From: Gammaproteobacteria bacterium
GTDB taxonomy: Bacteria > Pseudomonadota > Gammaproteobacteria > UBA4575
Direction: 5' to 3'
Length of the DNA: 64,000 nt
NCBI GenBank assembly: GCA_965243395.1
Contig: CBDEUS010000001.1
Coordinates: forward strand, 640,001 to 704,000
A model generated the notes under the pieces. That model was not told the DNA's origin, did no database searches, and saw only the letters and a program-made list of their open reading frames with translations. Both the position numbers and the translations under genes were made by a program. Shown here in pieces: positions 10,078-33,014 of this stretch; positions within the stretch are counted from its first letter, which is position 1, and each line of letters begins with the position of its first letter.

Positions 10078-10127
10078 CTATATGTACTCCAACATTCCTT
10101 ATTTGTTTAGCCTATATTTAAATACTT

Positions 10128-15291: not shown

Positions 15292-16542
15292 TCAAATAAG
15301 TTTGTATAGTTTTTTTACGAGCACGCTAGCAGAGGATAGTTTGCTATCTCGTAATTTTTTTAATGGTAAGGTGGCTACGCTGTCTGTCCGACAAGCTAAA
15401 CCTCGATGATCAATTCCTGGCACACCCACTGGAATGTAAACATCAGCCTGTTCAAAATTCATTTTTGGATGACCTAAGACTATGGTTGGAATATCAGTAT
15501 CAGGAGGTGCATTATTTGGATTATATGTAGCGATCCACAACAGACAGTCAGTCTCTTGCTTAAGTATCATTTTATTACCATCATAGATAACGGGATCATG
15601 TATAGGTACGCCTTGTGTAAATGAAACAGGCAAAGGTACTCCTGTTTGCCAGGTTGCGACATGATTTGCGGTTACTTCAGCTTTTGAACCACTTAGCGGC
15701 AAACCGATACAACGAACTTGTTTCATTAATAATTTAATTATTTCAGTAAGTGCTTGTACAGTGTGTTCAGCAGATTCCAGTTTAAATTCACTGGTTGTCC
15801 AAATAAGGGTTGTATATTGACTGGAAGAAATTACTTTAAATAATTTTAATAGTTCTTCACTTTCTTTATCGTGATTGGAAATATTTTCTTTTGTAATGAT
15901 CTCTTGGAAGTGATAGATAATTGATTCAAGTAATGGATAATTAAAAAACATATACGTGATGTTTTCTTTTTGTTCACATCTTGTTTTTCCGTCTTCAGAA
16001 ATATCAATTATAAAAATCTTTTTTGACTTAGTGTTTTCATTGCCTAATGTTTTTTCAGGACTTAACACACGCTGTAGTAAACGAGGAAATTTAGTCGTTA
16101 CATTTTTCCCAAAAATAACTACGCAATCGGCTCGGTTCCTAACTTCAGCTAGTGTAGTTCGTACTTCACCAATGCGTTGCATGACTGATGAACTTTTTCG
16201 CATTAATGAGCCACTAGCATGATCAATCACACCGCCCAACTTTTCTGTTAAGGCAAGGGCTTCTCTACAAGTTTGAATGTCAGCAATCAGTCCATTAACC
16301 AATGGTAATTGAGCAGTTTTCAATAGCTCAGCTGCCTTTTCGAGAGCTTGTTCTTCAGAAGCTGGCCTCCCGGCAATCATGGGCTTAGGCAGGTACTCAT
16401 CGTCTAGTGAAGCCTCGGAATAGGCTTGTTTACAAATAGGATCTGCAGGGGTTTTAAGCTGAACAGATAGCCCTGTAACTTCAACAGATAGGTCATCACA
16501 CATCAAACCACAGTGTGGGCAGGTTACCGTTTGAAATTGCAT
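15292..16542 (-). CDS. fhcB: Formyltransferase/hydrolase complex subunit B (catalytically degenerate FwdB homologue)
   Basis: TTLAEVRNRAD, WQTG, PGIDH; lacks the Cys-His and RG motifs of FwdB. Confidence 0.88.
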   Translation of the reverse strand: MQFQTVTCPHCGLMCDDLSVEVTGLSVQLKTPADPICKQAYSEASLDDEYLPKPMIAGRPASEEQALEKAAELLKTAQLPLVNGLIADIQTCREALALTEKLGGVIDHASGSLMRKSSSVMQRIGEVRTTLAEVRNRADCVVIFGKNVTTKFPRLLQRVLSPEKTLGNENTKSKKIFIIDISEDGKTRCEQKENITYMFFNYPLLESIIYHFQEIITKENISNHDKESEELLKLFKVISSSQYTTLIWTTSEFKLESAEHTVQALTEIIKLLMKQVRCIGLPLSGSKAEVTANHVATWQTGVPLPVSFTQGVPIHDPVIYDGNKMILKQETDCLLWIATYNPNNAPPDTDIPTIVLGHPKMNFEQADVYIPVGVPGIDHRGLACRTDSVATLPLKKLRDSKLSSASVLVKKLYKLI

Positions 16543-18182: not shown

Positions 18183-19562
18183 ATGAAGAAAATGGCAGTA
18201 ATAAAAGCCAAGTGGATGAAAAGCATTGCTACATTAACGTGTGTATTGTTTGCTTCCGTAATTGGTTTCCAATCTACCGCAATGGCAGATGAGACATGTA
18301 TGTCGCCATACATGGCTAAAATTGTTGGTCAAGAAGATTATGTCTATGTTTGGACCCTAGGTGTTGAAGGCATGGGTGACGAGCAAGACAAACTCGTTAC
18401 CATTTCTGTAAATCCTGAAGCGGATACATACGGCAAAGTTGTAAATGTATTATCTGTAGGTGGGCGCAATGAAGCTCATCATTCAGGTTTAACGGATGAC
18501 CGCAAATATCTTTTTGCTGGTGGTTTAGATAGCAATAAGATTTTTATCTTTGATGTATACAGCAATCCAGCAAAACCTAAATTACACAAAGTTATTACTG
18601 ACTTTGTAGAACAAACAGGCGGAATGGTTGGACCTCACACTATGTATGCATTACCAGGTCGCATCATGGTAAGCGCACTTTCTAATAACGTTGATCATGG
18701 TGGTCGCACCGGACTAGCAGAATATACGAATGAAGGTGATTTTGTAGCTGCACACTGGATGCCTACTGACGAAGACCTTCGTGGTGCTGAAAAAGTGGGT
18801 AACGTAGCTGATGGCTATGGATATGATATACGTGCATTACCTCGACGAAATGTGATGGTGACTTCATCATTTACCGGATGGTCAAATTACATGATGGACT
18901 TTGGTCAAATGCTAGCGGACCCTGAAGCCATGAAGCGCTTTGGAAATACCGTTGTTGTTTGGGATTTGCACACACGCAAACCTAAAAAAGTATTTGAAGT
19001 TCCTGGTGCACCTTTAGAGATTCGTTGTGCATGGGGATCACAAAATAACTATTGCTTCACCACAACAGCACTTACTTCAAAAATCTGGTTGATTTATGAA
19101 GATGATGCCGGCGAATGGCAAGCTGCGGACGTGGGCGAAATAGGTGATCCTTCTAAAGTACCACTACCTGTAGACATTTCTATCACAGCAGATGATCAAG
19201 GCCTTTGGGTGCAAACTTTCATGGATGGTAAGACACGTTACTTTGATATCTCTGATCCACACGCTCCTAAGCAAACTTATGAGCACGTTATTGGATCTCA
19301 AGTGAATATGATTTCACAAAGCTGGGATGGAAAGCGTACTTACTTTACATCTTCTTTGCTTGGTAATTGGGATAAGACAGGTGAAGCTGATGAGCAGTAC
19401 TTCAAGCTATTTACTTGGAATGGTAAGAAGCTGTCACATGAGTTCACAGTAGATTTCTATGAGCTTAAGTTAGGTCGTGCGCATCAAATGCGTTTTGGCG
19501 CTTACTCATTGTACGGCCAAGCACCGAACTCTAAGGACAAAATGCTGTCTCAAGTTAAGTAA
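18183..19562 (+). CDS. mtoX: Methanethiol oxidase (SBP56 family, periplasmic)
   Basis: Signal peptide, DETCMSPY..GQEDYVYVWTLG, NEAHH, GPHT, SSFTGW and SSLLGNWDK carrying the two putative TTQ Trp; followed by sco and mauG. Confidence 0.92.
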   Translation: MKKMAVIKAKWMKSIATLTCVLFASVIGFQSTAMADETCMSPYMAKIVGQEDYVYVWTLGVEGMGDEQDKLVTISVNPEADTYGKVVNVLSVGGRNEAHHSGLTDDRKYLFAGGLDSNKIFIFDVYSNPAKPKLHKVITDFVEQTGGMVGPHTMYALPGRIMVSALSNNVDHGGRTGLAEYTNEGDFVAAHWMPTDEDLRGAEKVGNVADGYGYDIRALPRRNVMVTSSFTGWSNYMMDFGQMLADPEAMKRFGNTVVVWDLHTRKPKKVFEVPGAPLEIRCAWGSQNNYCFTTTALTSKIWLIYEDDAGEWQAADVGEIGDPSKVPLPVDISITADDQGLWVQTFMDGKTRYFDISDPHAPKQTYEHVIGSQVNMISQSWDGKRTYFTSSLLGNWDKTGEADEQYFKLFTWNGKKLSHEFTVDFYELKLGRAHQMRFGAYSLYGQAPNSKDKMLSQVK

Positions 19563-19604
19563 GATAGGTGCGGTTACTAATGTAACGGCAAATTTAGTTA
19601 CTTA

Positions 19605-19640
19605 AACAAGGCCGCCCACTGAGGCGGCCTTGTTATTTTT
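19605..19640 (+). terminator. Intrinsic terminator/stabilising hairpin after mtoX
   Basis: aacaaggccgcc-cactga-ggcggccttgtt-attttt. Confidence 0.8.
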
Positions 19641-19668
19641 GGAGACAGTAATACTTGTAATTTCATAG

Positions 19669-20427
19669 ATGAAAATTAAAAACATTAAAAACTTAATATA
19701 CATACTGATCATTTGCATGCTTATGTCATGTGATCGCACAATGGATGAAGATGCGCCATTGCCTGGCTCTCATGCAGCTGTTGCTGCTTCTGAGGTTCAA
19801 GTTGTCGCAGACGGCTGGGTGGCCGAACTTCCGTTTGAAGTACCACAACCTGGCACCTACACCCTCTCGAAAATTAACAAAGCAGCAGGTGGTATTGTAT
19901 TAGATGTCGATGGTCAGGAGTTTGACCTAGATAATTTATACGGGGACAAAATTGTACTACTTACTTTTATTTATAGTAGTTGCAAAGATCTAAACGGTTG
20001 TCCACTAGCAACTGCGGTTTTTTATAAAGTAAAAGAAAAGTTCAAAGATGATCCTAAGCTTGCAGACAAGATTCGATTAATTAGTGTAAGTTTTGACCCT
20101 GAGCATGATACACCGGAAGTTATGAAATTATATGGTGCTGGTTTTGAAGGAGGTCAACCAGAATGGCATTTCCTAACCACAACTTCTGAAGAAGCTCTAT
20201 TGCCGATTACAAGCAAGTTTGGTCAGATGGTGATAAAGCAATATGACGAATCAGGAAACTATACTGGCACTATGTCACATGTCTTGCGTGCATTTTTAAT
20301 TGATAAGAACAAAAATATCAGACAAGAGTACAGTGTTTCGTTTTTACATGATCAACTTGTTACTGCAGATATAAAAACTCTTTTAATCGAAGATGGGTTA
20401 TTAACCGCTGATGCAATAATTGAATGA
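19669..20427 (+). CDS. SCO family copper chaperone (Mto-associated, likely lipoprotein)
   Basis: CKDLNGCP (Cx5C), SFDPEHDTP, SHVL; lipobox-like LMSC. Confidence 0.85.
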   Translation: MKIKNIKNLIYILIICMLMSCDRTMDEDAPLPGSHAAVAASEVQVVADGWVAELPFEVPQPGTYTLSKINKAAGGIVLDVDGQEFDLDNLYGDKIVLLTFIYSSCKDLNGCPLATAVFYKVKEKFKDDPKLADKIRLISVSFDPEHDTPEVMKLYGAGFEGGQPEWHFLTTTSEEALLPITSKFGQMVIKQYDESGNYTGTMSHVLRAFLIDKNKNIRQEYSVSFLHDQLVTADIKTLLIEDGLLTADAIIE

Positions 20428-21782
20428 ACGATAAACGGAGAAAAATTTTATATTCTGTGAACGCCGGTCTGTTATTTGGTGTTCTAGTTTTGTTACTTGC
20501 TTCTAATTATCTTTACAGTTCTACCGAAAAAGAACCTGTTTCAGATGCGAATAGCAATAAACATATATTTGGGCCCGGAGATAACAAGGAGGGTTATGAC
20601 TCTATAGATTACACAACGAATACATTAGATTTGCAGAGGCGTATTGGCAAAGAAGCCGATCTTATGGAATTCGTTGATAATCCGCCATTAGGCTTGCCTG
20701 TTGTTCCAGTCCCTGACGATAACCCTATAACGAAAGAGAAGATTTTATTAGGTAGAAAGTTATTTTTTGATCGTCGACTTTCCATTAATGACACTTTTTC
20801 TTGTGCAATTTGCCATATACCTGAACAAGGTTTTACTAATAATGAAATTCAAACAGCCGTAGGGGTTGAAGGCCGATCTGGTAAACGCAATTCTCCGACC
20901 GTATATAACACTGCATATTTAGAAAAGATTTTTCACGATGGTAGGGAATCAACATTAGAACAGCAGGTTTGGGCGCCTCTATTAGCACATAATGAGATGG
21001 CGAATCCTTCAATTGGTTATGTGATAAATAAAATTAAAGCCATTCCAGACTATGATGGTTTATTTGAAAGTGCATTTAATGGTCGAGGCCCCACGATGGA
21101 AACAGTTGGAATGGCATTGGCTGATTATCAACGAGCCTTAAACTCTGCGGACTCTCCATTTGATCGGTGGTATTTCGGTAAACAAGAAGATGCGGTAAGT
21201 GAACAAGTAAAACGTGGATTTGAAATTTTCAGCGGAAAAGGGCAGTGCACAACTTGTCATTTGGTGCATGAGGATTATGCACTCTTTACAGATCATGAGT
21301 TGCATAACACGGGCTTAGGATATTTAGCATCTATGGGCACAACTTCTGAAACTACACGTGTGCAGTTAGCGCCCGGTATTTTTGCAGATGTAGATAATGA
21401 AATTATCGAGAGAGTATCAAGACCTAAAGAAAATGATTTAGGTCGGTATGAAGTTACAGAGAATCCTCATGACCGTTGGAAATTTCGTACACCACAGCTC
21501 AGGAATGTGGCTTTAACTTCTCCTTACATGCATGATGGGTCGATGCAAACGTTGCGTGAAGTTATGGAATTTTATAATCAAGGTGGCATACCAAATGAAA
21601 TATTAAGTCCATTGATTAAACCACTTGGTTTGACGAATGAAGAGATGGATGACGTAGTCGCATTTATGGAATCTCTTACAGGCAGTAATGTAGCAATTTT
21701 GGTTGCGGATGCTTTTGCAGCACCAATCGGTGATATCAGCGCGGATGATCCAAATTGGGCACATGAAAACAAAATAAAGTAG
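20424..21782 (+). CDS. mauG: MauG-like diheme cytochrome c peroxidase (TTQ maturation)
   Basis: CAICH and CTTCH hemes, RNSPT, FRTP.LRNV..TSPYMHDG; 4-nt overlap with sco. Confidence 0.85.
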   Translation: MNDKRRKILYSVNAGLLFGVLVLLLASNYLYSSTEKEPVSDANSNKHIFGPGDNKEGYDSIDYTTNTLDLQRRIGKEADLMEFVDNPPLGLPVVPVPDDNPITKEKILLGRKLFFDRRLSINDTFSCAICHIPEQGFTNNEIQTAVGVEGRSGKRNSPTVYNTAYLEKIFHDGRESTLEQQVWAPLLAHNEMANPSIGYVINKIKAIPDYDGLFESAFNGRGPTMETVGMALADYQRALNSADSPFDRWYFGKQEDAVSEQVKRGFEIFSGKGQCTTCHLVHEDYALFTDHELHNTGLGYLASMGTTSETTRVQLAPGIFADVDNEIIERVSRPKENDLGRYEVTENPHDRWKFRTPQLRNVALTSPYMHDGSMQTLREVMEFYNQGGIPNEILSPLIKPLGLTNEEMDDVVAFMESLTGSNVAILVADAFAAPIGDISADDPNWAHENKIK

Positions 21783-21842
21783 CATGCTTGACTCTCCAAG
21801 AATCCCAGGGTACATGATAATAAAATCAAGTGATGTAAAAAC

Positions 21843-22418
21843 ATGAAAAATTATCCACATAATTTAATTTTCTGTTTCGTAATTAATTTAGTGTTTATGC
21901 TCCCATTGAGTGCAGACGATGGACGTTTAATGGATTCTTATCCACCAAATGTGAGTGCAGAGAATTTTGAATTACCAGATTTAAATGGTGATCAGCATCA
22001 ATTAGAAGAATTTCGCGGAAAATATGTTTTAGTCAATTTTTGGGCCATGTCCTGCAATGTGTGTAAAAGCGAAATGACGACATTACAAAGCGCTTATGAG
22101 TTACTGGGAAGCGATAATATTGCAATCATCTCTATCCACGCAGGCACAAATTACGATGGGGTTGATGAGGTATTGAAAATTAACAATGTCACTTATACTG
22201 TGCTGCTTGATATAGATTTAGAATTAGGAGCGTGGGGTATACCTATACTACCCACCACTTTTATAGTAAGTCCTGAAGGCGATATTCGATACAGAGCGGT
22301 TGGCACACGCGTATGGAATTCACCATTCATGATTGATTTTATCCAAAACTTACTTGATAGTGATGAATCACAATATTCTTCGCCGCAAGCTTCATGGAAT
22401 GACCGAACTTATCTTTAG
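21843..22418 (+). CDS. TlpA-like thioredoxin
   Basis: NFWAMSCNVCKSEM, LPTTF; signal peptide. Confidence 0.85.
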   Translation: MKNYPHNLIFCFVINLVFMLPLSADDGRLMDSYPPNVSAENFELPDLNGDQHQLEEFRGKYVLVNFWAMSCNVCKSEMTTLQSAYELLGSDNIAIISIHAGTNYDGVDEVLKINNVTYTVLLDIDLELGAWGIPILPTTFIVSPEGDIRYRAVGTRVWNSPFMIDFIQNLLDSDESQYSSPQASWNDRTYL

Positions 22419-22470
22419 GGAGCTTATCTAAGCCTTGTTCAATCTTGTAAATGTGGAAAATAGAAGCTTA

Positions 22471-23109
22471 ATGTACAGATCGTTATTTGTTGTTATATAT
22501 TTTTTAGCGGTAGGCAGCCATGTATGGGCTGGTGGTTTAATGGACCCAATTAGTGGCAAACCTAAATCAGCTGGTTTTAACCTGGAAGATACGAAGGGAA
22601 GCAAAGTCAGCTTAGACGACTATCGTGGGAAATTTGTTCTACTCAATTTCTGGGCAACTTGGTGTGCGCCATGTCGTAAAGAAATGCCAGCAATGAGCAA
22701 TCTGCACGATGAATTTAATGGCGAGAGTTTAGAAGTCGTAGGAGTTCATGTAGGGCCCAGTTTGGCGGGCGTAAAAAAATTCTTAGAGGCTGTGCCTGTC
22801 TCATTTACTATTTTAATTGATAAAGATATGAGTTTAGCTAATTGGGGTGTGCAAGGCCTGCCTACTACTTTCTTAATTAATCCTGAAGGCAAACTAGTAT
22901 ATAAAGCAGTTGGAGAGCGTGAATGGGATTCTCCCGAAATGGTTTCTTTTTTAAAAAATATGGTAGCTAAGTACGAGCGTATGGCCGATAGTGATCAACC
23001 CGTTGAAGAATATATTCCTAAAAAGAAATCATTCTTCGCAAACTTTATGGAAAAAACATTTGGTTGGTCTAATGATCAGTGTGATACGACGAATTTAGTT
23101 CCTAATTAA
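22471..23109 (+). CDS. TlpA-like thioredoxin
   Basis: NFWATWCAPCRKEMP, GLPTTF, GEREWD; ATG 22471 preferred over TTG 22435. Confidence 0.87.
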   Translation: MYRSLFVVIYFLAVGSHVWAGGLMDPISGKPKSAGFNLEDTKGSKVSLDDYRGKFVLLNFWATWCAPCRKEMPAMSNLHDEFNGESLEVVGVHVGPSLAGVKKFLEAVPVSFTILIDKDMSLANWGVQGLPTTFLINPEGKLVYKAVGEREWDSPEMVSFLKNMVAKYERMADSDQPVEEYIPKKKSFFANFMEKTFGWSNDQCDTTNLVPN

Positions 23110-23112
23110 AAA

Positions 23113-23403
23113 ATGTTTAATCGCTCAGCTTTTGCTGAATATGTTATTGAATATATTTCTGAATACTTCCCAGATGCAAATATTGAAGAATGGGAACATG
23201 AAAAAAATGAGTCTTTAAACTTTAATGTTGTCGAAAATGAAACAACATACATTTTACGAGTAATGGATGAATGTTTGCTTGATATTGAAGTAAATGAAGT
23301 TAAGGAATTATTAACGAGTTACAATGTAGCGCAGGTAATGCGTGATATTAGAGATTTTCCTATTGTAGTAACGAATTCCGGATGTATATTCGGCTCTCCT
23401 TAA
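23113..23403 (+). CDS. Hypothetical acidic protein closing the mto cluster
   Basis: 96-aa ORF 3 nt after tlpA. Confidence 0.6.
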   Translation: MFNRSAFAEYVIEYISEYFPDANIEEWEHEKNESLNFNVVENETTYILRVMDECLLDIEVNEVKELLTSYNVAQVMRDIRDFPIVVTNSGCIFGSP

Positions 23404-23500: not shown

Positions 23501-23773
23501 CTATTCGGAAGTTGTGGGATCTATCATTCCTCTAACTTGTGAAATTTTATTTGCAGGGAAACCACCTTCTTCTGCGTGTTTGCGAATTTCATCTTCATTT
23601 GGGGCAATATATGTGCAATACACTTTGTCATCCGTTACAACACTCTCTACCCATTGAATCTGTGGGCCCATATTATTCAGAATGCTACAAGATTTTTGTG
23701 AAATTCCTTGTAGCTCTGCAGCGGTCAAATTACCGGCGCCTGGTATTTCACGTTCAATAATATATTTTGGCAT
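23501..23773 (-). CDS. DUF4242 (SCO4226-like nickel-binding) protein
   Basis: MPKYIIEREIPGAG, KVYC.YIAPNE..IRKHAEEGGFPANKIS. Confidence 0.85.
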   Translation of the reverse strand: MPKYIIEREIPGAGNLTAAELQGISQKSCSILNNMGPQIQWVESVVTDDKVYCTYIAPNEDEIRKHAEEGGFPANKISQVRGMIDPTTSE

Positions 23774-23936: not shown

Positions 23937-24117
23937 TTGCAAAATATGCTAACATTCTATCCCTGCAGAGTTAGCACACACTACCTCATCACATTAAATA
24001 TGGGGTAGATACTGGCAGGTTCCACCAATAATCATGTCTGATAGGTGGTATCGGTTCGAATCTATTTTCTCTCGCTTTAATAAATTTGATTACTTTATGA
24101 ATTTAAAGGAATTTTAA

Positions 24118-24462
24118 ATGGCGGAGACCATGATACTAGTTCCCGGTAGATCCCAAAGCCAAGGAACCTCACTGAATGAAGGCAAACTCAAAGATGAGTA
24201 TAAGAAGGTCACTTCTACGGCTGAGTTGAATGAAAAAGACATGAAGCGACTCAAATTAAAGGATGGCGATAAGATTCGTTTGAAGTCCGATGTTGGGCAG
24301 ACAGTGGTGACTTGCAAAAGCAAAAAAGATGAGGACCTACCGACGGGAATGATATTTATTCCATATGGACCACCATCCAGTGAGCTAATGGCCGCTGATA
24401 CAGCGGGTAGTGGAATGCCTCTGTCAAAACATATGGAAGTTACTGTCACAAAGGCAAGGTAA
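24118..24462 (+). CDS. fwdD: Formylmethanofuran dehydrogenase subunit D (molybdopterin dinucleotide-binding)
   Basis: GRS..QG, G.IFIPYGP, T.GSGMP..K motifs; directly before fwdB. Confidence 0.88.
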   Translation: MAETMILVPGRSQSQGTSLNEGKLKDEYKKVTSTAELNEKDMKRLKLKDGDKIRLKSDVGQTVVTCKSKKDEDLPTGMIFIPYGPPSSELMAADTAGSGMPLSKHMEVTVTKAR

Positions 24463-24494
24463 ATTTTTCAAAGCAACTATTTGGAATTCTTGAT

Positions 24495-25868
24495 ATGAGT
24501 GAAACAGCACCAGCGAAAGCACCCGTAAAATCTAAAGAAGAAAATAAAAATATAAAAATTGTTAAAGATGCAACGTGCACTTTTTGTGGTTGTGTTTGTG
24601 ATGATATGGAACTTACGGTAGATCTTGATCAGCATAAAATAACCAAAGCAAAAAAAGCATGTGTGCTAGGTCGAGCATGGTTTTATGAACATACACTAGA
24701 TACTCGACCAGAAGTTTTAATCGATGGCAAAAAAGCTAGTTTTGAGGATGGCGTTGAGGCTGCGGCAAAAATATTAGTTGATGCCAAGTTCCCAATTACT
24801 TATGGCATGAGTGACTCAACGTGTGAAGCACAACGTGTCACTGTAGATATTATGGATACGATTAATGGCAATGTTGATACCACTACTTCAGTTTGTCATG
24901 GCCCATCAGGTATGGCGTTTCAGGGAGTAGGAGAGAGTACTGCTACACTTGGTGAAATTAAAAATCGTGCAGACCTCGTGATCTACTGGGGCGGAAACCC
25001 TGCTGAATCACATCCGCGCCACTTCACTCGCTATGCGGTAACACCTAAAGGGATGTACATTCCAAATGGAAAGAAAGATCGTACTGTAGTGTTATTCGAT
25101 GTGCGTAAAACACCAAGCACACCTGTTGCAGATATTTTCGTGCAAGTTAAACCCGGGAAAGATTTTGAAGTTTTGTGGGCACTGCGCGCGCTTGTTAAAG
25201 GTAAAAAAATCAGTGCAGATATTGAAGAACAAACAGGCGTATCACGTGAAGTGCTGGACGATTTAGTTGATCGCATGAAGAATTGTCAGTTTGGCGTATT
25301 GTTCTTTGGTATGGGTCTTACTATGACAAGAGGCCGTCATTTTAATTCTGGTGCATTATTGTCGCTTGCAGCAGATCTTAATGAATATACTCATTTTGTT
25401 GCCAAGCCAGTACGTGGTCACGGTAATGTAACCGGTGCAGATAATGTTGTTTCATGGCAAACAGGCTATCCGTTTGGTGTGAACTTTAATCGTGGTTATC
25501 CACGTTTTAATCCCGGAGAGTTTACTACTACAGACTTGTTATCAAGAGGTGAGGCTGATGCGGCGATGATAATTGCATCAGACCCTGCATCAAACTTTCC
25601 TAAAGCAGCTATTGAGCATCTGAAAAAAATTCCAATTATTTCATTAGATACTAAAGATACTGTCACCAGCAGTATTGCTAAAGTGCGGTTTGCGGTTTCG
25701 ACTTACGGAATTAACACCGGTGGAACAGTGTACAGAATGGATGATGTCCCTATTTCATTACGACCTGCATTTGAATCGACGTATCCGTCTGACCAGGAAG
25801 TATTGGAAGCAATACGTAAGCGGGTTAAACAAATGCTTAAGGGGGATAAGGCGCGCGTTGCAGCTTAG
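24495..25868 (+). CDS. fwdB: Formylmethanofuran dehydrogenase subunit B (intact Mo/W site)
   Basis: CTFCGCVCDD...C [4Fe-4S] ligands, SVCHGP metal ligand, HPRH, GMGLT, VRGHGNV, YRMD. Confidence 0.92.
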   Translation: MSETAPAKAPVKSKEENKNIKIVKDATCTFCGCVCDDMELTVDLDQHKITKAKKACVLGRAWFYEHTLDTRPEVLIDGKKASFEDGVEAAAKILVDAKFPITYGMSDSTCEAQRVTVDIMDTINGNVDTTTSVCHGPSGMAFQGVGESTATLGEIKNRADLVIYWGGNPAESHPRHFTRYAVTPKGMYIPNGKKDRTVVLFDVRKTPSTPVADIFVQVKPGKDFEVLWALRALVKGKKISADIEEQTGVSREVLDDLVDRMKNCQFGVLFFGMGLTMTRGRHFNSGALLSLAADLNEYTHFVAKPVRGHGNVTGADNVVSWQTGYPFGVNFNRGYPRFNPGEFTTTDLLSRGEADAAMIIASDPASNFPKAAIEHLKKIPIISLDTKDTVTSSIAKVRFAVSTYGINTGGTVYRMDDVPISLRPAFESTYPSDQEVLEAIRKRVKQMLKGDKARVAA

Positions 25869-25947
25869 TATACAAGTCAAATTAATTATAAATATAGTCT
25901 TAAAAATGGTGTGATGATGCTGTGTTTTGAGACTTAAGAATAAAAAT

Positions 25948-27594
25948 ATGTCTTCAGAATTAAAAATAGTGAATGGTCGAGTCTACGACCCCGCAAATAA
26001 TATTGATGGAAAAGTTCAAGACGTCTATGTAAAGGACGGCAAGATCGTAGACTCTGTTTCAGGCTCGGCTAGCAAAATAGATGCTCACGGTATGGTGGTG
26101 ATGCCGGGTGCGGTAGATATTCATTGTCATATTGCGGGCGCAAAAGTAAATTTAGCTCGAAAGCTACAGCCCGAAGATCATCGTTTAGATGCACATCCAA
26201 AAACAGCAATCACTCGTTCAGGTACCGGGGGGATTGTGCCTTCAACATTTGCGACAGGTTATCGCTATGCAACCATGGGTTATACAACTGCGATGGAAGC
26301 AGCCGTCCCACCTATTTCTGCTAGACACACATTAGAAGAGTTAGATGACACACCTGTTATTGATAAAGGGTTTTACGTTTTACTTGGAAACAATGCATTT
26401 TTATATAAGCTGCTAAAAGAAGAACGAAAAAATGAGTTTAAAGAAGCGATAGCATGGTGGATTAATTCAGTACATGCGCACACTCTTAAACTAGTGAATG
26501 TTGGTAGTGACGAATTATGGAAAGGCCGCAAGAATGCCAATATCACTAATGTTAATGAGAAAATTGATCACTACGAAATCACACCTAATCATGTGATTGA
26601 AAGTTTTATTGAAGCAGCTCACGAACTGGGTTTGCCGCATCCTCCCCATGTGCATTGCAACAACTTAGGGCACAGTGGGAATATCAGTACTACATTGGAT
26701 ACCATGAAAGCCGCACAAGGTCGCCGTGTACATATGGCGCATATTCAATTTCACAGTTTAGGTGGCGAGCTTAATAAAAACCCTATATCAGGCGTTAAAG
26801 AAATCATTGATTATGTGAACGATAACGAAAACATTACATGTGATGTGGGCCAAGTCATGTTTGGTAAAGCAACTGCTATGACAGCCGATGCACCGTTGGC
26901 GTGGATGCTTCGAAACGTAAAGCCTGCAAAATGGGTCAATGCAGATACGGAATGTGAAAGCGGCTGTGGAATTATTCCTTTTTCATATCAAGAAAGCGTT
27001 TACACACATGCTTTGCAGTGGGCAATGGGTTTAGAATTATTTTTGCAATCAAAAGATCCTTGGCGTGTGTTGCTATCAACGGATCATCCGAACGGCGGCT
27101 CTTTTATGAGTTATCCTAAACTCATCAAATTGTTAATGGATAGTGGTTATCGAAAAGAAGCATTGCAACGTGTCAATCAAAAAGCAATTAATGCAACATG
27201 TTTAAAAGACCTTGAGCGCGAATACACATTATATGAAATTGCAATCATTACTCGAGCTGGCCCTGCACGAGCACTGGGGTTAACAAGTAAGGGGCATTTA
27301 GGTAATGGCGCAGATGCTGACATAACAATTTATACTGAAGAAGATGACAAAGAGGCGATGTTTAATGCGCCGCGTTATGTAATTAAAGATGGCGTCACGG
27401 TAATTAAAGATCATGAATTCGCGACAGATCACAAGGGAAAACTATTGCATTCAAAGCCCGGGTATAACGAAGATATAGCGGGAGAAATTGAACCATTCTT
27501 TGAAGATTATTATTCGGTTAAGTTTAGTAACTATGCTATTGGGGAAGAATATCTACATAAACACGAAGTCGTTCCAGTGATCCCGAAAGCATAA
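25948..27594 (+). CDS. fwdA: Formylmethanofuran dehydrogenase subunit A
   Basis: DIHCH, LKLVN, HVHCNNLG, HIQFHS, STDHPNGG; ATG 25948 preferred over TTG 25927. Confidence 0.9.
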   Translation: MSSELKIVNGRVYDPANNIDGKVQDVYVKDGKIVDSVSGSASKIDAHGMVVMPGAVDIHCHIAGAKVNLARKLQPEDHRLDAHPKTAITRSGTGGIVPSTFATGYRYATMGYTTAMEAAVPPISARHTLEELDDTPVIDKGFYVLLGNNAFLYKLLKEERKNEFKEAIAWWINSVHAHTLKLVNVGSDELWKGRKNANITNVNEKIDHYEITPNHVIESFIEAAHELGLPHPPHVHCNNLGHSGNISTTLDTMKAAQGRRVHMAHIQFHSLGGELNKNPISGVKEIIDYVNDNENITCDVGQVMFGKATAMTADAPLAWMLRNVKPAKWVNADTECESGCGIIPFSYQESVYTHALQWAMGLELFLQSKDPWRVLLSTDHPNGGSFMSYPKLIKLLMDSGYRKEALQRVNQKAINATCLKDLEREYTLYEIAIITRAGPARALGLTSKGHLGNGADADITIYTEEDDKEAMFNAPRYVIKDGVTVIKDHEFATDHKGKLLHSKPGYNEDIAGEIEPFFEDYYSVKFSNYAIGEEYLHKHEVVPVIPKA

Positions 27595-27605
27595 GTTGTA
27601 ATTAG

Positions 27606-28490
27606 ATGAAAATTGGTAAAACTGAAATCGTAGACACCTTTGCTGAAGCATTCGAAATGTGTGGCTCACGTGTAATTATTACTGCTGATACAAAGCAGTG
27701 GGCACGTGCTGCGGCAGCATCCATGACCGGTTTTGCAACTTCGGTTATTCGCTGCAAACTAGAAGCAGCTGTTGAAAATGAAATACCAGAATCTGATACA
27801 CCGGATGGACGACCTGGAATAAGTGTTTTGCTATTTACCATGAGCTCTAAAACTATTGCCGGTCAATTGATAGATCGTATTGGCCAATGTGTGATGACCT
27901 GTCCCACTTCTGCTTGTTTTAACGGGTTGGAGTCTGATCGCTCTGTTTCAGTTGGTGGTAAGTTACGGTTTTTTGGAGATGGATATCAAATTAGCAAACT
28001 CGTTGATGGAATACGTATGTGGCGCATTCCCGTAATGTCCGGTGAATTTTTAATTGATGATCAATTCGGCATTCAACCTGCAGTAGGTGGCGGTAATTTA
28101 ATAATCTTTGGTTCAACAAGGGGCATTGCATTGCGTGCCTCTATCGCCGCAACACATGCTATGCGTGAAGTAGGTGGTGTATTTTTACCATTTCCACAAG
28201 GAGTAGTGCGCTCAGGAAGTAAAGTGGGCGCAAAGTATAAAGGCATGATTGCATCAACAAATGATGCCTATTGTCCAACGCTTCGATCTATTAGTGATCA
28301 TTCAGTTGTGCCTGAAAATGTAGAAGCGATTTACGAAATTGTCATAGATGGTCTCTCTGAAGAGGCAGTTAAAGAAGCCATGCGGCGAGGTCTACACGCA
28401 GCTGCTGAAAAGGGAGCTACGATGATTTCGGCTGGTAACTATGGGGGAGAATTAGGTAAGTATAAATTTCACCTCAACGAGTTAATTTGA
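27606..28490 (+). CDS. ftr: Formylmethanofuran:H4MPT formyltransferase, second copy
   Basis: DTFAEAF, TPDGRPG, RIGQCVMTCPT, RSGSKVG, AGNYGG. Confidence 0.92.
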   Translation: MKIGKTEIVDTFAEAFEMCGSRVIITADTKQWARAAAASMTGFATSVIRCKLEAAVENEIPESDTPDGRPGISVLLFTMSSKTIAGQLIDRIGQCVMTCPTSACFNGLESDRSVSVGGKLRFFGDGYQISKLVDGIRMWRIPVMSGEFLIDDQFGIQPAVGGGNLIIFGSTRGIALRASIAATHAMREVGGVFLPFPQGVVRSGSKVGAKYKGMIASTNDAYCPTLRSISDHSVVPENVEAIYEIVIDGLSEEAVKEAMRRGLHAAAEKGATMISAGNYGGELGKYKFHLNELI

Positions 28491-28546
28491 AATTGAATAA
28501 TTCATAAAATACAGATACATATAGAATAAATATAAAGTAACTTTCC

Positions 28547-29365
28547 ATGTCAACTGCACATTTAAAATTGCATACACAACCTGAGGTGCCGTTAGAAGCA
28601 GAGGTGCTTAGTACTGCCAAGTTATCGGGCTTATCGCAGTCTGGAATTGAGCACCTGCCTGTATTGCATGGCAATGTAAAAGCAAGTGTTGGCGATTTCT
28701 TCAAAGTTACCGGTAAAGGTAATTCAGAAATTTTGCTCGAGGGGGATTTATCGAACATAAAAATGATTGGTGCCGGCATGTCAGACGGCAAAATAATCAT
28801 TGATGGTGATGTGGGCATGCACCTTGGAATCGGCATGTCGGGCGGAGAAATAGTCGTAGAAGGTAATGCTGGAGATTGGGTGGGTCCTGAAATGTCAGGT
28901 GGTCGTATCACAGTTAAAAAAAATGCTGGCCACATGGTGGGTGCAGCCTATCGCGGCCATACAACTGGAATAACAGGTGGCGAAATATTTGTACATGGTG
29001 ATGCTAAAAATGAAATTGGCAGTGCAATGCGCCGAGGTTTTATTGCAATAGGCGGCAATGCAGGAGATTTTACAGGGGTAAATATGTTAGCGGGTACTAT
29101 TGTCGTATTGGGAGAGTTAGGCATTCGCACGGGTGCAGGTATGCGACGAGGCACTATCGCCTCCTTAGAAGATGCACCAATGTTGCCTAGTTTTGAATAT
29201 GCCTGTACATATCGCCCACTATTTTTAAGATTTTATCTCAGGAAGTTGCAAGAAAATGGCTTCAAGAGGAAAATTCAGGAAAAACACCTAAATGGTATTT
29301 ACAAACGTTATAGCGGAGACGGGATTGAACTCAATCGTGGCGAGGTTTTATTGTTTTCAAAATAA
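28547..29365 (+). CDS. fwdC: Formylmethanofuran dehydrogenase subunit C
   Basis: P.VPLEAE, GxGMxGG repeats, GAAYRG, GMRRGT. Confidence 0.9.
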   Translation: MSTAHLKLHTQPEVPLEAEVLSTAKLSGLSQSGIEHLPVLHGNVKASVGDFFKVTGKGNSEILLEGDLSNIKMIGAGMSDGKIIIDGDVGMHLGIGMSGGEIVVEGNAGDWVGPEMSGGRITVKKNAGHMVGAAYRGHTTGITGGEIFVHGDAKNEIGSAMRRGFIAIGGNAGDFTGVNMLAGTIVVLGELGIRTGAGMRRGTIASLEDAPMLPSFEYACTYRPLFLRFYLRKLQENGFKRKIQEKHLNGIYKRYSGDGIELNRGEVLLFSK

Positions 29366-29452
29366 TTCTTGATAACTTAACTTGCTTCGGAACACTCATC
29401 GCGTTTTCTATATTTGTAGTTAAATAATGTTAACAATATAGGAGACAAACTC

Positions 29453-29758
29453 ATGACTACAGTTGTAACTGAGAATTGCAAAGGCTGTCGATTTACTGAC
29501 TGCGTGTCTGTATGTCCAGTCGCATGTTTTCACTATGATGATGAAATGCTTTATATCGACCCAGATGTCTGTATTGATTGCAGCGCATGCATACCAGAAT
29601 GTCCAGTTGAAGCCATCTATGAAGAAGATGACATCCCTGAGGGTCAAGAGGGATGGGTGGAGATCAATGCAGAAAAAGCTCCTGATTTACCTTTAATCGA
29701 AGAGCCCATGGATCCATTGCCCGGTGCCGAGGATCGTAAATCAGAATTAGGATTCTAA
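29453..29758 (+). CDS. fdxA: 7Fe-type ferredoxin (Azotobacter FdI/FdxA family)
   Basis: VVTENCKGCRFTDCVSVCPV.CF...CIDCSACIPECPVEAIY; AGGAG RBS. Confidence 0.88.
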   Translation: MTTVVTENCKGCRFTDCVSVCPVACFHYDDEMLYIDPDVCIDCSACIPECPVEAIYEEDDIPEGQEGWVEINAEKAPDLPLIEEPMDPLPGAEDRKSELGF

Positions 29759-29782
29759 ACTTACTAAATTTAAAAAATGAGA

Positions 29783-29810
29783 GCGCACAGTCAAAAGGCT
29801 GTGCGTTTTA
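29783..29810 (+). terminator. Hairpin between ferredoxin and reductase genes
   Basis: gcgcacagtc-aaaa-ggctgtgcgt-ttta. Confidence 0.6.
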
Positions 29811-29845
29811 CGTTTTGAATAGAATAATAAAAATAGGTATCGCTC

Positions 29846-31222
29846 ATGAGTATTGGAACTGAATCGAATCCCTTAAAAGTAGCTATTGTGGGTAGTGGCC
29901 CAAGTGGTTTCTATGCAACCGAAGCATTAATCAAATCGGATCTTAATGTTGAAATTGATTTAATTGAAAGATTGCCTGCACCTTTTGGTTTAGTTCGTAA
30001 TGGTGTAGCCCCTGACCACCCTAAACTTAAACAAGCTATTGAAGTTTACAAAAAGATTGCACAAAGCCCTGAATTTAATTTTATTGGTAATGTAACGGTG
30101 GGCCAAGATGTTACAGCTGAAGATTTACAAAATACGCATCATGCCGTCATCTATACATGTGGTGCAGAGACTGATCGTAAACTGGGTATCCCAGGAGAAG
30201 ACCTGCAAGGTAGCTACACGGCAACAGAATTTGTAGGTTGGTACAACGGTCATCCGGATTATCGAGATCGTACATTTGACCTCTCTCATGAAACCGCCAT
30301 TGTAATTGGGCAAGGTAATGTGGCAGCAGATGTATCACGGATACTGGCAAAGTCTGTTGACGAATTAAAGCATACAGATATTTCTCAACATGCCTTGGAC
30401 GCTTTAGCAGACAGTAAAATTAAAACAATCTATGTAGTAGGACGTCGTGGCCCCGCGCAGGCAAAGTTTGCTTCAAAAGAACTAAAAGAGTTTTTAGAAA
30501 TAGAAAATTGTCGACCTTACATAGATCCTAAAGAACTAGAGCTTAATGAAACCAGTCAGCAAGAACTGGAAATGAAAGAAGGTCGTGGTAATAAAAAGAA
30601 TGTTGAAATCTTTCAAAAGTTTGCTGAATCCGAAGATGCTGGTAAACCGCGTACATGTATTTCTACATTTCTAAAAAGCCCTGTTCGTTTAGAAGGAGAA
30701 GGGCGTTTACAAAAAGCCGTGTTTGAAATTAACGAACTCTCAGGTGAGCCCTTCAAGCAATCTGCAAAAGGTACGGGTGAAACTATGGAAATTGAATGTG
30801 GAATATTATTTCGTAGTATTGGTTACAACGGTGTTCCCATACCAGGTGTACCTTTTTATGATCGATGGGGCACCATCCCAAATGAGAATGGACGCATAAC
30901 AACAGAACAAGGTGGCGATGTAGTGCTGGGATTGTATACAGCAGGTTGGATTAAACGTGGTCCATCTGGAATTATCGGAACCAATCGTGCTTGTGCTGTG
31001 GAGTCCGTAGATATGTTATTGGAAGACGTATCTAAATTATCTACAGACAAACCAGGCCGTGAAGCGTTGTATAAAATTCTAGATGCAAATAATGTTCAAT
31101 TCATCAATTATGATCAATGGATGAAAATTGATGCAGCGGAAGTGGCGGCAGGCGAATCTAAAGGTAAGCCACGCGAAAAATTCACTCGTCGTGAAGAAAT
31201 GTTAGCGATAGCAAATGGATAA
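29846..31222 (+). CDS. fprA: Ferredoxin-NADP+ reductase, adrenodoxin-reductase/FprA type
   Basis: VGSGPSGFY, GVAPDH, FVGWYNGHP, GQGNVAAD, GRRGP, GWIKRGPSG.IGTN, KPREK. Confidence 0.9.
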   Translation: MSIGTESNPLKVAIVGSGPSGFYATEALIKSDLNVEIDLIERLPAPFGLVRNGVAPDHPKLKQAIEVYKKIAQSPEFNFIGNVTVGQDVTAEDLQNTHHAVIYTCGAETDRKLGIPGEDLQGSYTATEFVGWYNGHPDYRDRTFDLSHETAIVIGQGNVAADVSRILAKSVDELKHTDISQHALDALADSKIKTIYVVGRRGPAQAKFASKELKEFLEIENCRPYIDPKELELNETSQQELEMKEGRGNKKNVEIFQKFAESEDAGKPRTCISTFLKSPVRLEGEGRLQKAVFEINELSGEPFKQSAKGTGETMEIECGILFRSIGYNGVPIPGVPFYDRWGTIPNENGRITTEQGGDVVLGLYTAGWIKRGPSGIIGTNRACAVESVDMLLEDVSKLSTDKPGREALYKILDANNVQFINYDQWMKIDAAEVAAGESKGKPREKFTRREEMLAIANG

Positions 31223-31350
31223 AAAACTATTCCACTTTATCCGTTTTTATGCTACTTGCATCAGATAGATAATTTGTAAAGTTTTATAAATATAATATTG
31301 TTTTACTTAATTAAAGTGAAATTTTATTAATTTATAAAAAGGGGACAAAT

Positions 31351-31848
31351 ATGCTCTCTATGCGAAATATTACTGGGATATCTATCATTTTGTCTGCAAT
31401 CATCCTTACTGGTTGCGGTACTGCTAAAACTGTTGTACTTGAAGCACCTGATGTATCAACAAAATTCAATGAAGTTGAACTCGTAGCAAACAATCCTACT
31501 GTTAATGTTCCTGAGGAAGTAGATGTATTACTTCGGACTACAATAGAAAAAGGTCTCATTGAAGAAGGAAGTTTTGTTAAAGGTAATGATTTACAAATTC
31601 AATATACATTTGTAAATCATGATGAAGGCAGTCGTGCAGCGAGATGGTTCTGGGGTGGCTTAGGTAATGCAGGTGAAGGTACTGTTACAGTCATGGTGGT
31701 GTATCTTGATAAAGATCAAAAAGAACTGGCCAAGACTCAAGTAGAAGGTAAAATTGGTAGTGGTTTTTTTGGAGGTTCAATGAATGAAGCAATAGTAAAA
31801 GCTGGAGAAGATATTGTAGAATTTACCAAACAAAACTTTTCTGAGTAA
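31351..31848 (+). CDS. DUF4410-like lipoprotein
   Basis: LTGC lipobox, GSRAARWF.GGLG.AG. Confidence 0.75.
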   Translation: MLSMRNITGISIILSAIILTGCGTAKTVVLEAPDVSTKFNEVELVANNPTVNVPEEVDVLLRTTIEKGLIEEGSFVKGNDLQIQYTFVNHDEGSRAARWFWGGLGNAGEGTVTVMVVYLDKDQKELAKTQVEGKIGSGFFGGSMNEAIVKAGEDIVEFTKQNFSE

Positions 31849-31870
31849 ATATATTAACTATTATCATTTA

Positions 31871-31899
31871 AAAAGGCAGCCTAGTGGCTGCCTTTTTTT
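31871..31899 (+). terminator. Rho-independent terminator
   Basis: aaaaggcagcc-tagt-ggctgccttttttt. Confidence 0.85.
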
Positions 31900-32198
31900 A
31901 TGCCTAAAACATCATTAAAAAATTAAAAAATCACGGTATAGACGTTAGTGAATTTAAGAAAAACTTTTGAGTAATTCACGAGTCGAGGCGAATGCAAGCT
32001 AATCCGGGTAATTTATTTACTATAATATAATTAAAGTAATCTCTCTAGTTTAACATTTAAGCTATTGGTTAATAGTAATTATTGAATTAAATGGGAAGGA
32101 ACTATTGCTCGTATAGTCTTTAGGTTGTATTTTTGTTTAATCATGTATTTCTAGGCGATAACAGAATAAATAACTGGCAATTACAGAATTAAAAAACT

Positions 32199-33014
32199 AT
32201 GGAGTTACCAATTATGTTAAGACTAAAGTCTTTTTTATTTGGCGGAATTTTTCTTTCAATACTAACTATATTTAGCATGCCTTTGCATGCAGACGGTGTA
32301 TCAGGCTCTGCGGCTGGAGGTAGCACATCGGGTGCAGATAGTGAGTTGGAATCTTGTCCTGAACCTTTAGGCACGTTAGCAGTACATGAAGATCAGACTG
32401 CATCTTGGTGGCATCATTACTATCGTCGATATCCTACTTTAGGAAGTACTACACCCTTGTTGCGTTTAATGGTGCAACAATCAAATTGCTTTGTAGTAGT
32501 AGAAAGAGGCAAGGCAATGGAAAATGTAATGGGTGAACGAGAATTAGAACAAGCAGGTGAAACACGCGAAGGCAGTAATTTTGGCAAAGGCCAAATGGTT
32601 GCAGCGGACTACACGATGAGTCCTGAAATTCAGATATCGGAAGAAACGGGTGGTGCGAAAGGAAAATTATTTGGGAAATTAGGGGGAGCAGGGGATTTGT
32701 TAGATAGTGTTGCAGGAAAATTAAAAAGAGATGAAGCGTCAACTACGCTCTTGTTAATTGATAACCGTTCCAGTGTGCAGGTAGCAGCTGCACAAGGTTC
32801 ATCCAAAAAATTTAGTTTTGGTGGCGGCGTTGGAATTTTTGGCAGCCAAGGAGGTGGTACTGCATCAGCATTCACTAAAACCCCTGAAGGGAAAGTAATC
32901 GCAGCTGCCTTTGCAAATTCTTATAATAATATGGTTAAAGCATTGCGAAGTTACAAAGCACAAAATGTTGAAGGTGGGCTTGGTAAAGGCGGTAAACTTA
33001 AAGTAGGCGAGTAA
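32199..33014 (+). CDS. CsgG/HfaB family exported protein
   Basis: LRLMVQQSNCFVVVERG, GQMVAADY, signal peptide. Confidence 0.75.
   Translation: MELPIMLRLKSFLFGGIFLSILTIFSMPLHADGVSGSAAGGSTSGADSELESCPEPLGTLAVHEDQTASWWHHYYRRYPTLGSTTPLLRLMVQQSNCFVVVERGKAMENVMGERELEQAGETREGSNFGKGQMVAADYTMSPEIQISEETGGAKGKLFGKLGGAGDLLDSVAGKLKRDEASTTLLLIDNRSSVQVAAAQGSSKKFSFGGGVGIFGSQGGGTASAFTKTPEGKVIAAAFANSYNNMVKALRSYKAQNVEGGLGKGGKLKVGE

Follow-up and report, generated by a model that had tools for sequence, protein, structure and literature searches.

Genes of the fwd operon

The stretch of DNA analysed here (the window; 64,000 nucleotides, G000:C1:640001-704000) belongs to a 2.58-Mb, 100%-complete gammaproteobacterial genome in two contigs (G000), the close relatives of which are all labelled as uncultured Gammaproteobacteria metagenome-assembled genomes (MAGs). 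Its GC content is approximately 0.35-0.43. At positions 24118-31222 of the forward strand, the open reading frame (ORF) listing and family scans identified seven co-directional genes, fwdD-fwdB-fwdA-ftr-fwdC-fdxA-fprA, bearing out the gene block that an earlier note, made from the sequence alone, had claimed. They would act as a single module, in which a redox-active bacterial formylmethanofuran (methylofuran) dehydrogenase is supplied with both a formyltransferase and an electron outlet. The features of the operon are as follows.

24118-24462, + strand: fwdD, separate molybdopterin-dinucleotide-binding 'fourth domain' subunit, 114 aa; Pfam PF01568 Molydop_binding 48.8 bits, E 8e-13
24495-25868, + strand: fwdB, Mo/W-bis-pyranopterin guanine dinucleotide (bisPGD) and [4Fe-4S] subunit, 457 aa; TIGR03129 508 bits against a cut-off of 328
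25927-27594, + strand: fwdA, amidohydrolase subunit (predicted site of formyl-methylofuran hydrolysis/condensation), 555 aa; TIGR03121 695 bits
27606-28490, + strand: ftr, formylmethanofuran:tetrahydromethanopterin (H4MPT) formyltransferase; Pfam FTR 1e-58 and FTR_C 4e-57; TIGR03119 410 bits
28547-29365, + strand: fwdC, beta-helix GXGXG scaffold subunit; TIGR03122 252 bits; Pfam GXGXG
29453-29758, + strand: fdxA, dedicated 7Fe-type ferredoxin paralogue, 101 aa; Azotobacter vinelandii ferredoxin I chains E 4e-29 over residues 4-95
29784-29815, + strand: terminator-like hairpin between fdxA and fprA, CGCACAG-N8-CTGTGCG then TTTTACGTTTT; palindrome from the scan
29846-31222, + strand: fprA, adrenodoxin-reductase-type NADPH:ferredoxin oxidoreductase, 458 aa; Mycobacterium tuberculosis FprA (1lqt_A) E 3e-108 over residues 9-456

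FwdB, FwdA, Ftr, and FwdC are all over their NCBIfam equivalog cut-offs, those of TIGR03121 and TIGR03122 marking FwdA and FwdC as the corresponding subunits of the archaeal Fwd/Fmd enzymes. FwdD reaches 84 bits with the NCBIfam FwdD model (NF042908), under that archaeal model's cut-off of 175; it is over the Pfam Molydop_binding cut-off, as is expected of the separate pterin-capping subunit of Fwd/Fmd. Its gene is directly 5′ of fwdB in 16 of the 20 stretches fetched from relatives and in most of the named loci described below. The start codon of fwdA is TTG, with an ATG seven codons further in. The ftr gene is situated between fwdA and fwdC, the place of fhcD in the operons for the formate-releasing hydrolase complex Fhc. 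No FwdF/FwdG polyferredoxin is encoded at the locus, where the sole ferredoxin gene is that of the 101-aa FdxA, and FwdE (Pfam FmdE) was not found in the genome. A promoter scan returned 15 promoter-like sites, fewer than the 29.1 in shuffled sequence, and no promoter is claimed. Among sequencing runs searched for 24000-31400, no RNA run holding this region was found; the matches were four runs of DNA type, all from one study, and three guessed to be RNA that shared almost none of its words.

The active site of FwdB

When compared with all PDB chains, FwdB matched archaeal FwdB/FmdB (9sfi_Q, 8rja_B, 5t5i_B, 9sw6_J, and 7bkb_H) over its full length, with E values of 6e-117 to 2e-96, whereas the match to M. 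extorquens FhcB (6s6y_B) was at 8e-14 and confined to the C-terminal half. FwdA matched archaeal FwdA chains at 1e-140 to 4e-126 and M. extorquens FhcA (6s6y_A) at 1e-102; its HxH stretch and its later His/Asp stretches align with 5t5i_A. The earlier description of FwdB as archaeal-like, and not Fhc-like, thus agrees with the solved structures (about 1e-117 against 8e-14), and it is on these matches that the term is based, because the FwdB tree contains no named archaeal rows.

The motifs pointed out in the earlier note are all seen in the sequence, these being C28-x2-C31-x3-C35...C56, SVCHGP (C134 and H135), and VRGHGNV (R307). In the HMMER alignment, C134, H135, and R307 fall on Cys118, His119, and Arg288 of 5t5i_B, the ligand and catalytic residues of Fwd/Fmd, and they are invariant in 32 aligned rows, as are the cysteines of the N-terminal [4Fe-4S] site (C28, C31, C35, and C56). 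The residue opposite C134 in 9sfi_Q is printed as X, which is probably selenocysteine. According to the part of PMC6926001 that was available, Fhc is not a dehydrogenase, having lost the residues equivalent to Cys118/His119/Arg288, FwdD, and the [4Fe-4S] cluster domain. The FwdB of the window, with its pterin ligands and D subunit, does not fit that description. All 79 readable FwdB rows, which come from several phyla (81 rows before exclusion of L113 and L120), retain the catalytic Cys, His, and Arg together with the four cluster cysteines, and the catalytic three are all missing from 14 of 14 FhcB paralogues; the claim that the catalytic residues are intact therefore extends from this locus to its relatives. 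As far as sequence comparison goes, it is established that the residues and subunits which CO2/formate redox chemistry requires are there and are kept by selection, and that a dedicated ferredoxin and an FprA-type reductase are inherited along with them.

These findings bear on the alternative that the complex is an Fhc-like hydrolase that only releases formate, in which the intact FwdB residues would be relics and fdxA-fprA would serve an unrelated process. Its order of B-A-ftr-C is indeed that of fhc operons. Such a hydrolase would not be expected to keep the Cys/His/Arg set and cluster cysteines in every readable FwdB when every true FhcB has lost the catalytic set, nor to retain FwdD, and this alternative is considered improbable.

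Among the FwdB 50%-cluster representatives, those at 40-52% identity being P0121-P0270, the nearest include proteins of 572-606 aa (P0121, P0122, P0127, and P0128) in which an FwdD-like domain is fused N-terminally to FwdB. The catalytic Cys is gone in some representatives (P0122, P0124, and P0131), therefore intermediates between Fwd and Fhc exist.

FdxA and FprA

FdxA has the pattern C9-x2-C12-x4-C17-x3-C21P...C40-x2-C43-x2-C46-x3-C50P, invariant in 32 rows, which is that of 7Fe ferredoxins of the FdI type. Its score with NCBIfam FdxA_Protbact is 114.8, below the cut-off of 135, as fits a diverged paralogue. A second, housekeeping copy of FdxA is present in the genome (G000:C1:1163169), the two sharing 49% identity.

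FprA matches bovine adrenodoxin reductase (1cjc_A) over the full length (E 7e-100), in addition to M. tuberculosis FprA. Its GSGPSG and GRRGP stretches align with those of FprA and adrenodoxin reductase, as expected of an FAD- and NADP-binding enzyme, and the arginine pair of the NADP-binding stretch is taken to indicate NADP(H) specificity. The 'FprA' of papers on methanogens is most likely F420H2 oxidase, which we take to be a different protein.

Conservation of the linkage

Conservation of fdxA-fprA beside fwd in relatives had been set beforehand as a test, and it was passed in three samples. The first was a set of 41 genomes, made up of G000, 24 members of its family, and 16 genomes outside it. 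Of these, 26 carry Fwd-type FwdB at 74-100% identity (G000, 22 of the 24 family members, and three of the 16 others). FprA is found in 25 of the 26 and in none of the 15 genomes without FwdB. The lone FwdB-bearing genome without FprA (G034) is 75% complete and its contig stops after ftr, inside the operon; G018 and G020, from two genera of the family, have neither FwdB-type nor FprA. In 20 of the 25 genomes fprA is approximately 4 kb past fwdB on the same contig and strand, the other five having the two on separate contigs of fragmented assemblies. The whole seven-gene order is seen in 16 of the 20 stretches fetched, the remaining four being cut by contig ends. An FdxA copy of approximately 50% identity occurs in 40 of the 41 genomes, but the linked copy (70-100% identity) is found solely in the 25 with FprA and always beside it. 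Judged by this distribution, the linked FdxA is a dedicated paralogue.

The second sample consisted of named loci from 185,579 species genomes scanned with a degenerate pattern, in which at least 591 relatives were confirmed among at least 597 matched stretches. The counts given here are for the best 80 of these at least 591 relatives, all 80 being from MAGs, of which 57 are assessable (31 with the pair and 26 without) and 23 are too short. Thus fwdB, fdxA, and fprA share one strand in 31 of 57 assessable loci, by label 28 from Pseudomonadota, two from Ca. Porisulfidus, and one from Gemmatimonadales. In L094 and L095 the fdxA-fprA pair is upstream of fwdD instead of downstream of fwdC; as the two genes are still adjacent, the linkage survives rearrangement. 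The neighbours downstream of the module vary (fhcBADC, fdh, DUF4410, or others), therefore Fwd is the only constant partner of the pair. Both observations also count against a hydrolase with an unrelated fdxA-fprA pair. In one Ca. Porisulfidus MAG (L076) an insert of approximately 2.3 kb separates fwdC from fdxA, and fdxA and fprA overlap by 4 bp.

In a quick maximum-likelihood tree of FwdB (103 rows, L113 and L120 being excluded here too; LG+G4, with only Shimodaira-Hasegawa-like approximate likelihood ratio test (SH-aLRT) values and with several long branches flagged), all linked rows are inside one 48-row clade (SH-aLRT 98). Outside it are the Planctomycetota (27 rows, 99) and a trio of Actinomycetota, Rokubacteria, and Methylomirabilota, and the 14 FhcB rows form a clade of their own (100). 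In G012, of the same genus as the window (L052/L064), fwdB is 77% and fwdA 66% identical to those at 24495-27594, the other five genes (fwdD, ftr, fwdC, fdxA, and fprA) being 94-99% identical, and its FwdB is in a different subclade of the tree; it looks like the fwdB-fwdA pair has been swapped by recombination or transfer within an otherwise native operon.

The third sample was drawn evenly from the Gammaproteobacteria. FwdB-type was found in 15 of 301 genomes and FprA-type in 20 of 300, with both in 14 genomes (including the unpublished G063, G165, and G319) that carry 10 family codes, or 11 counting G034 (GTDB 232). Based on the three samples, the link to the ferredoxin and reductase is not due to chance.

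Fhc, formate dehydrogenase, and the complementary modules

In textbook accounts of bacterial one-carbon (C1) oxidation, the pathway ends with formate being set free by Fhc, followed by a separate formate dehydrogenase (FDH). Both are also encoded in the window, approximately 8 kb upstream of the fwd module on the opposite strand, although they were absent from the earlier note; the cell therefore has both systems.

16542-11898, - strand: fhcB-fhcA-fhcD-fhcC, canonical formate-releasing hydrolase type; FhcB TIGR03129 234 bits (below cut-off), TIGR03121 714, TIGR03119 430, TIGR03122 211
15292-16542, - strand: fhcB, with L, M, and S at the positions of FwdB C134, H135, and R307, the loss of pterin ligands typical of Fhc
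7321-11804, - strand: NAD-type formate dehydrogenase; alpha subunit at 7321-10077, 918 aa, with a NuoG-like N-terminus, TIGR01591 773 bits (over cut-off)
10128-11804, - strand: NuoE/NuoF-like fusion of the formate dehydrogenase, 558 aa; TIGR01959 nuoF_fam 371 bits

The fhc operon is outside the Fwd module, yet it is its functional counterpart, as is illustrated by five other members of the family, all of which keep mch. Three of them (G016, G017, and G023; 1.7-1.8 Mb, 97-99% complete, two of them single-contig) have Fwd-type FwdB, and their Fwd operons are complete through fprA (L049-L051). In family-HMM (hidden Markov model) searches, none of the three had an FhcB-type match or a metal-free FDH over cut-off, and no FDH-alpha was over cut-off in G016 or G023. 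Conversely, G018 and G020 have only FhcB and FDH-alpha (770 bits), with no Fwd, linked FdxA copy, or FprA. On this evidence [Fhc + FDH] and [Fwd + FdxA + FprA] behave as interchangeable finishes of the H4MPT pathway, which is expected if the Fwd module itself oxidises to CO2. This complementary distribution is regarded as the most telling result.

The four [4Fe-4S] cysteines remain in 11 of the 14 FhcB paralogues (window and L075-L102) despite the loss of the active-site Cys/His/Arg, and the FhcB of the window keeps three of the four. FhcB of M. extorquens is without the cluster domain, according to the available part of PMC6926001.

Other genes of the C1 island

Between the fhc and fwd operons, and directly upstream of fwd, there is a methanethiol oxidase cluster (18183-23403, + strand) with mtoX (762 bits), an SCO1/SenC-like protein, a MauG/MbnH-like di-haem enzyme, two TlpA/ResA-like thioredoxins, and a 96-aa ORF. 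Formaldehyde could plausibly come from this cluster. Conservation in the family was seen for the thioredoxin and 96-aa ORF neighbours of fwd; the mtoX cluster was rejected as part of the module because it is conserved only within the family. For the same reason a gene divergent from fwdD (23501-23773, - strand) was rejected. It encodes a 90-aa SCO4226-like ('nickel-responsive') protein that is 78-98% identical in family members and, at the tblastn threshold used, is not next to fwd in named loci beyond the closest group. After fprA, at 31351-33014 (+ strand), there are genes for a DUF4410 protein and a CsgG-like lipoprotein, and beyond these for a chromate-transporter-family protein and a major facilitator superfamily transporter, none of them conserved with the module.

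Two copies of fae, one in this island, and mch are present just outside the window. In the genome, neither pyrroloquinoline quinone (PQQ) methanol dehydrogenase nor hexulose-phosphate synthase (HPS) had a match over cut-off, and there were zero matches to RuBisCO; on these results the organism seems to be a C1-dissimilating heterotroph and not a methylotroph of the classical kind.

Proposed function

It is considered fairly probable that the complex is redox-active and oxidises formyl-H4MPT/formyl-methylofuran to CO2, with the electrons passing via FdxA and FprA to NADP+. By analogy with 6S6Y and 5T5I, Ftr would transfer the formyl group from formyl-H4MPT to methylofuran, FwdA would hydrolyse formyl-methylofuran to formate inside the complex, and the Mo- or W-bis-pterin site of FwdB/FwdD would oxidise this formate to CO2. 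The two electrons would pass from the [4Fe-4S] cluster of FwdB to the dedicated 7Fe FdxA, a substitute for archaeal FwdF/G, and FprA would transfer them from FdxA to NADP+. The net reaction would be formyl-H4MPT + NADP+ + H2O -> CO2 + H4MPT + NADPH, with no free formate, making the module a self-sufficient alternative to Fhc and NAD-formate dehydrogenase. Cofactor loading, activity, docking of FdxA, direction of the electrons, and NADPH as the product are predictions. The evidence suggests a formate-free route for C1 units to CO2.

The potentials are approximately -530 mV for CO2/formyl-methanofuran and -425 mV for the [3Fe-4S] cluster of FdI, and -320 mV for NADP+; oxidation is therefore downhill by approximately 40 kJ/mol and the reverse is not. 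This bears on a reductive function in the archaeal direction, in which electrons would run from NADPH through FprA and FdxA to FwdB and CO2 would be converted, for C1 assimilation, to formyl-methylofuran. In its favour, archaeal Fwd works this way, according to the available part of PMC6926001. Ferredoxin reduction is the normal reaction of FprA enzymes, and the genome has neither a RuBisCO match nor an HPS match over cut-off. The module holds no bifurcating partner, however, it stands in for Fhc and FDH in G016 and G023, and the fae and mch of the genome belong to the oxidative pathway. From NADPH, the reaction would be uphill by approximately 210 mV (about +40 kJ/mol) on the potentials above, and the reductive direction is highly improbable.

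A structure prediction was made for the complex of FwdB and FdxA. The median score is 0.36 against 0.15 for the best control, with agreement between runs in at least 84% of contacts and a partner pLDDT (predicted local distance difference test) of at least 88; no interface is given. Of 80 solved complexes 58 passed the mark, as did two of 110 mismatched pairs, but the passes at scores of 0.60 or less were only seven of the 80 and both passing mismatches, therefore a pass of this kind is more often wrong than right unless the guess is likely beforehand. The prediction gives weak support to the FwdB-FdxA pairing, and its score may echo the solved FwdB-FwdG complexes.

A number of observations weigh against oxidation through FdxA and FprA. 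FprA/adrenodoxin-reductase enzymes are best known for running from NADPH to ferredoxin, and family membership therefore leaves the direction of the electrons unset. In 26 of the 57 assessable loci, drawn from the same best 80 of at least 591, an intact FwdB has no adjacent fdxA-fprA (17 Planctomycetota, five Pseudomonadota, these being three Methylococcales, L101, and L104, two Gemmatimonadota, one Rokubacteria, and one Methylomirabilota), therefore the enzyme can use another partner. A regex scan found no ferredoxin-motif ORF within 9 kb of these 26 FwdB genes, and in all 49 loci without a complete pair it found only an fdxA at the contig end of L072 and no alternative polyferredoxin. FprA-type without FwdB occurs in six genomes of the class sample, at 58-59% identity in G143 and G227 and at 40-47% in the other four. 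G017 has an ambiguous 550-bit FDH-alpha-like match, below cut-off. The counts overstate the number of events, as kin are not independent, and the sequence is silent on Mo versus W and on oxygen tolerance. In addition, the stem of the hairpin between fdxA and fprA (CGCACAG/CUGUGCG or a near variant) is present in eight of 13 relatives' spacers that were folded, with a variable loop and, in seven of the eight, a following U-run (there is no clear one in L046). This suggests partial termination before fprA in the genus of the window, where fprA may not be co-transcribed; the hairpin may otherwise be an attenuator setting the ratio of FdxA to FprA. In other lineages the spacing of fdxA and fprA is as short as -4 to 25 bp.

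Several of these points would fit a role for FdxA and FprA in reductive maintenance or activation, with NADPH keeping the Mo/W centre or [4Fe-4S] cluster reduced under oxic conditions and the catalytic electrons leaving elsewhere. The usual direction of FprA-type reductases, the parting of fprA from fdxA by the hairpin in this genus, and the 26 loci with intact FwdB and no pair, for which an alternative acceptor must exist, are all in its favour. However, the module has no further conserved gene for an acceptor, and the Fwd-only G016 and G023, with no FDH over cut-off, would need a stoichiometric outlet. Likewise, although the fdxA-fprA spacer ranges from -4 to 612 bp across the linked named loci, it is 25 bp or less in 11 of them, which points to equimolar members of an operon. 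A maintenance role is therefore thought unlikely.

The more far-reaching proposal is that FwdDBA-Ftr-FwdC-FdxA-FprA is a complete, oxygen-compatible formyl-H4MPT:NADP+ oxidoreductase, taking C1 units to CO2 without release of formate and fully replacing Fhc and FDH, as in the streamlined G016 and G023; in that case a terminal step of bacterial C1 oxidation would have gone unrecognised, and the chances of this are judged to be even. A dedicated outlet through ferredoxin and ferredoxin-NADP reductase (FNR) is a concrete, testable mechanism. If true, it would account for the retention of an intact dehydrogenase site in aerobes, would predict NADPH and not NADH as the product, and would amount to a CO2/formyl-carrier redox unit of compact build that relies on an oxygen-robust 7Fe ferredoxin. 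For Gammaproteobacteria, relatives of atmospheric methane oxidisers included, metagenomic 'fwd' calls would then need a new reading in carbon-flux models. In the class sample, at least 11 groups of Gammaproteobacteria at family level (GTDB 232) would carry the module. It reaches some Gemmatimonadota and a close relative of an upland-soil-cluster gamma MAG, the contig of the latter MAG itself being too short to show the fdxA-fprA pair.

Comparison with known systems

The archaeal Fwd/Fmd enzymes (FwdABCDFG; 5T5I, 8RJA, and 7BKB) have in common with the operon described here FwdA, B, C, and D, the cluster cysteines and the Cys118/His119/Arg288 equivalents of FwdB, and a separate FwdD. They differ in that here there is no FwdF/G at the locus and no FwdE in the genome, Ftr belongs to the operon, a soluble-type 7Fe ferredoxin with an FAD reductase is proposed as the partner, and the host is of aerobic type and the direction likely oxidative.

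Methylotroph FhcABCD (6S6Y; PMC6926001, in the part available) shares the B-A-formyltransferase-C layout and the position at the end of the H4MPT formaldehyde-oxidation pathway, and here, too, methylofuran probably shuttles between Ftr and the A subunit. Fhc releases formate and is without FwdD, the pterin ligands, and, in M. extorquens, the cluster domain, according to the same source; all three are present here.

The closest published arrangement is the fwdDBA-ftr-fwdC of Hakuba actinobacteria (PMC7325909), which has these five genes in the same order, as well as an N-terminal [4Fe-4S] domain and the Cys118 equivalent, and lacks fwdE/F/G. In the available text these are from a Wood-Ljungdahl anaerobe without methanopterin synthesis genes, and no ferredoxin or FNR partner is mentioned. 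Bacterial FwdB homologues are likewise already in print in PMC10100899, and neither paper, in the parts available, gives bacterial FwdB an electron partner or role. The view of the earlier note that novelty rests on the Fd/FNR coupling is thus consistent with the available text of PMC7325909, since a bacterial operon of this order with the Cys118 equivalent and no fwdFG has been published there. A full-text literature search found no tie of a 7Fe ferredoxin or FprA-type reductase to such an operon, although related FwdB may be found in the supplements (PMC7325909, Fig. S4; PMC10100899, tables); nor did it find a description of the complementary distribution of Fhc + FDH and Fwd + Fd + FNR.

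M. tuberculosis FprA with 7Fe FdxA, and A. vinelandii ferredoxin I, are of the same protein types as FprA and FdxA here. FprA-FdxA is a known redox pair in mycobacteria (PMC6208970). There it feeds P450s from NADPH, whereas here the pair is fixed beside a C1 dehydrogenase and probably works toward NADP+.

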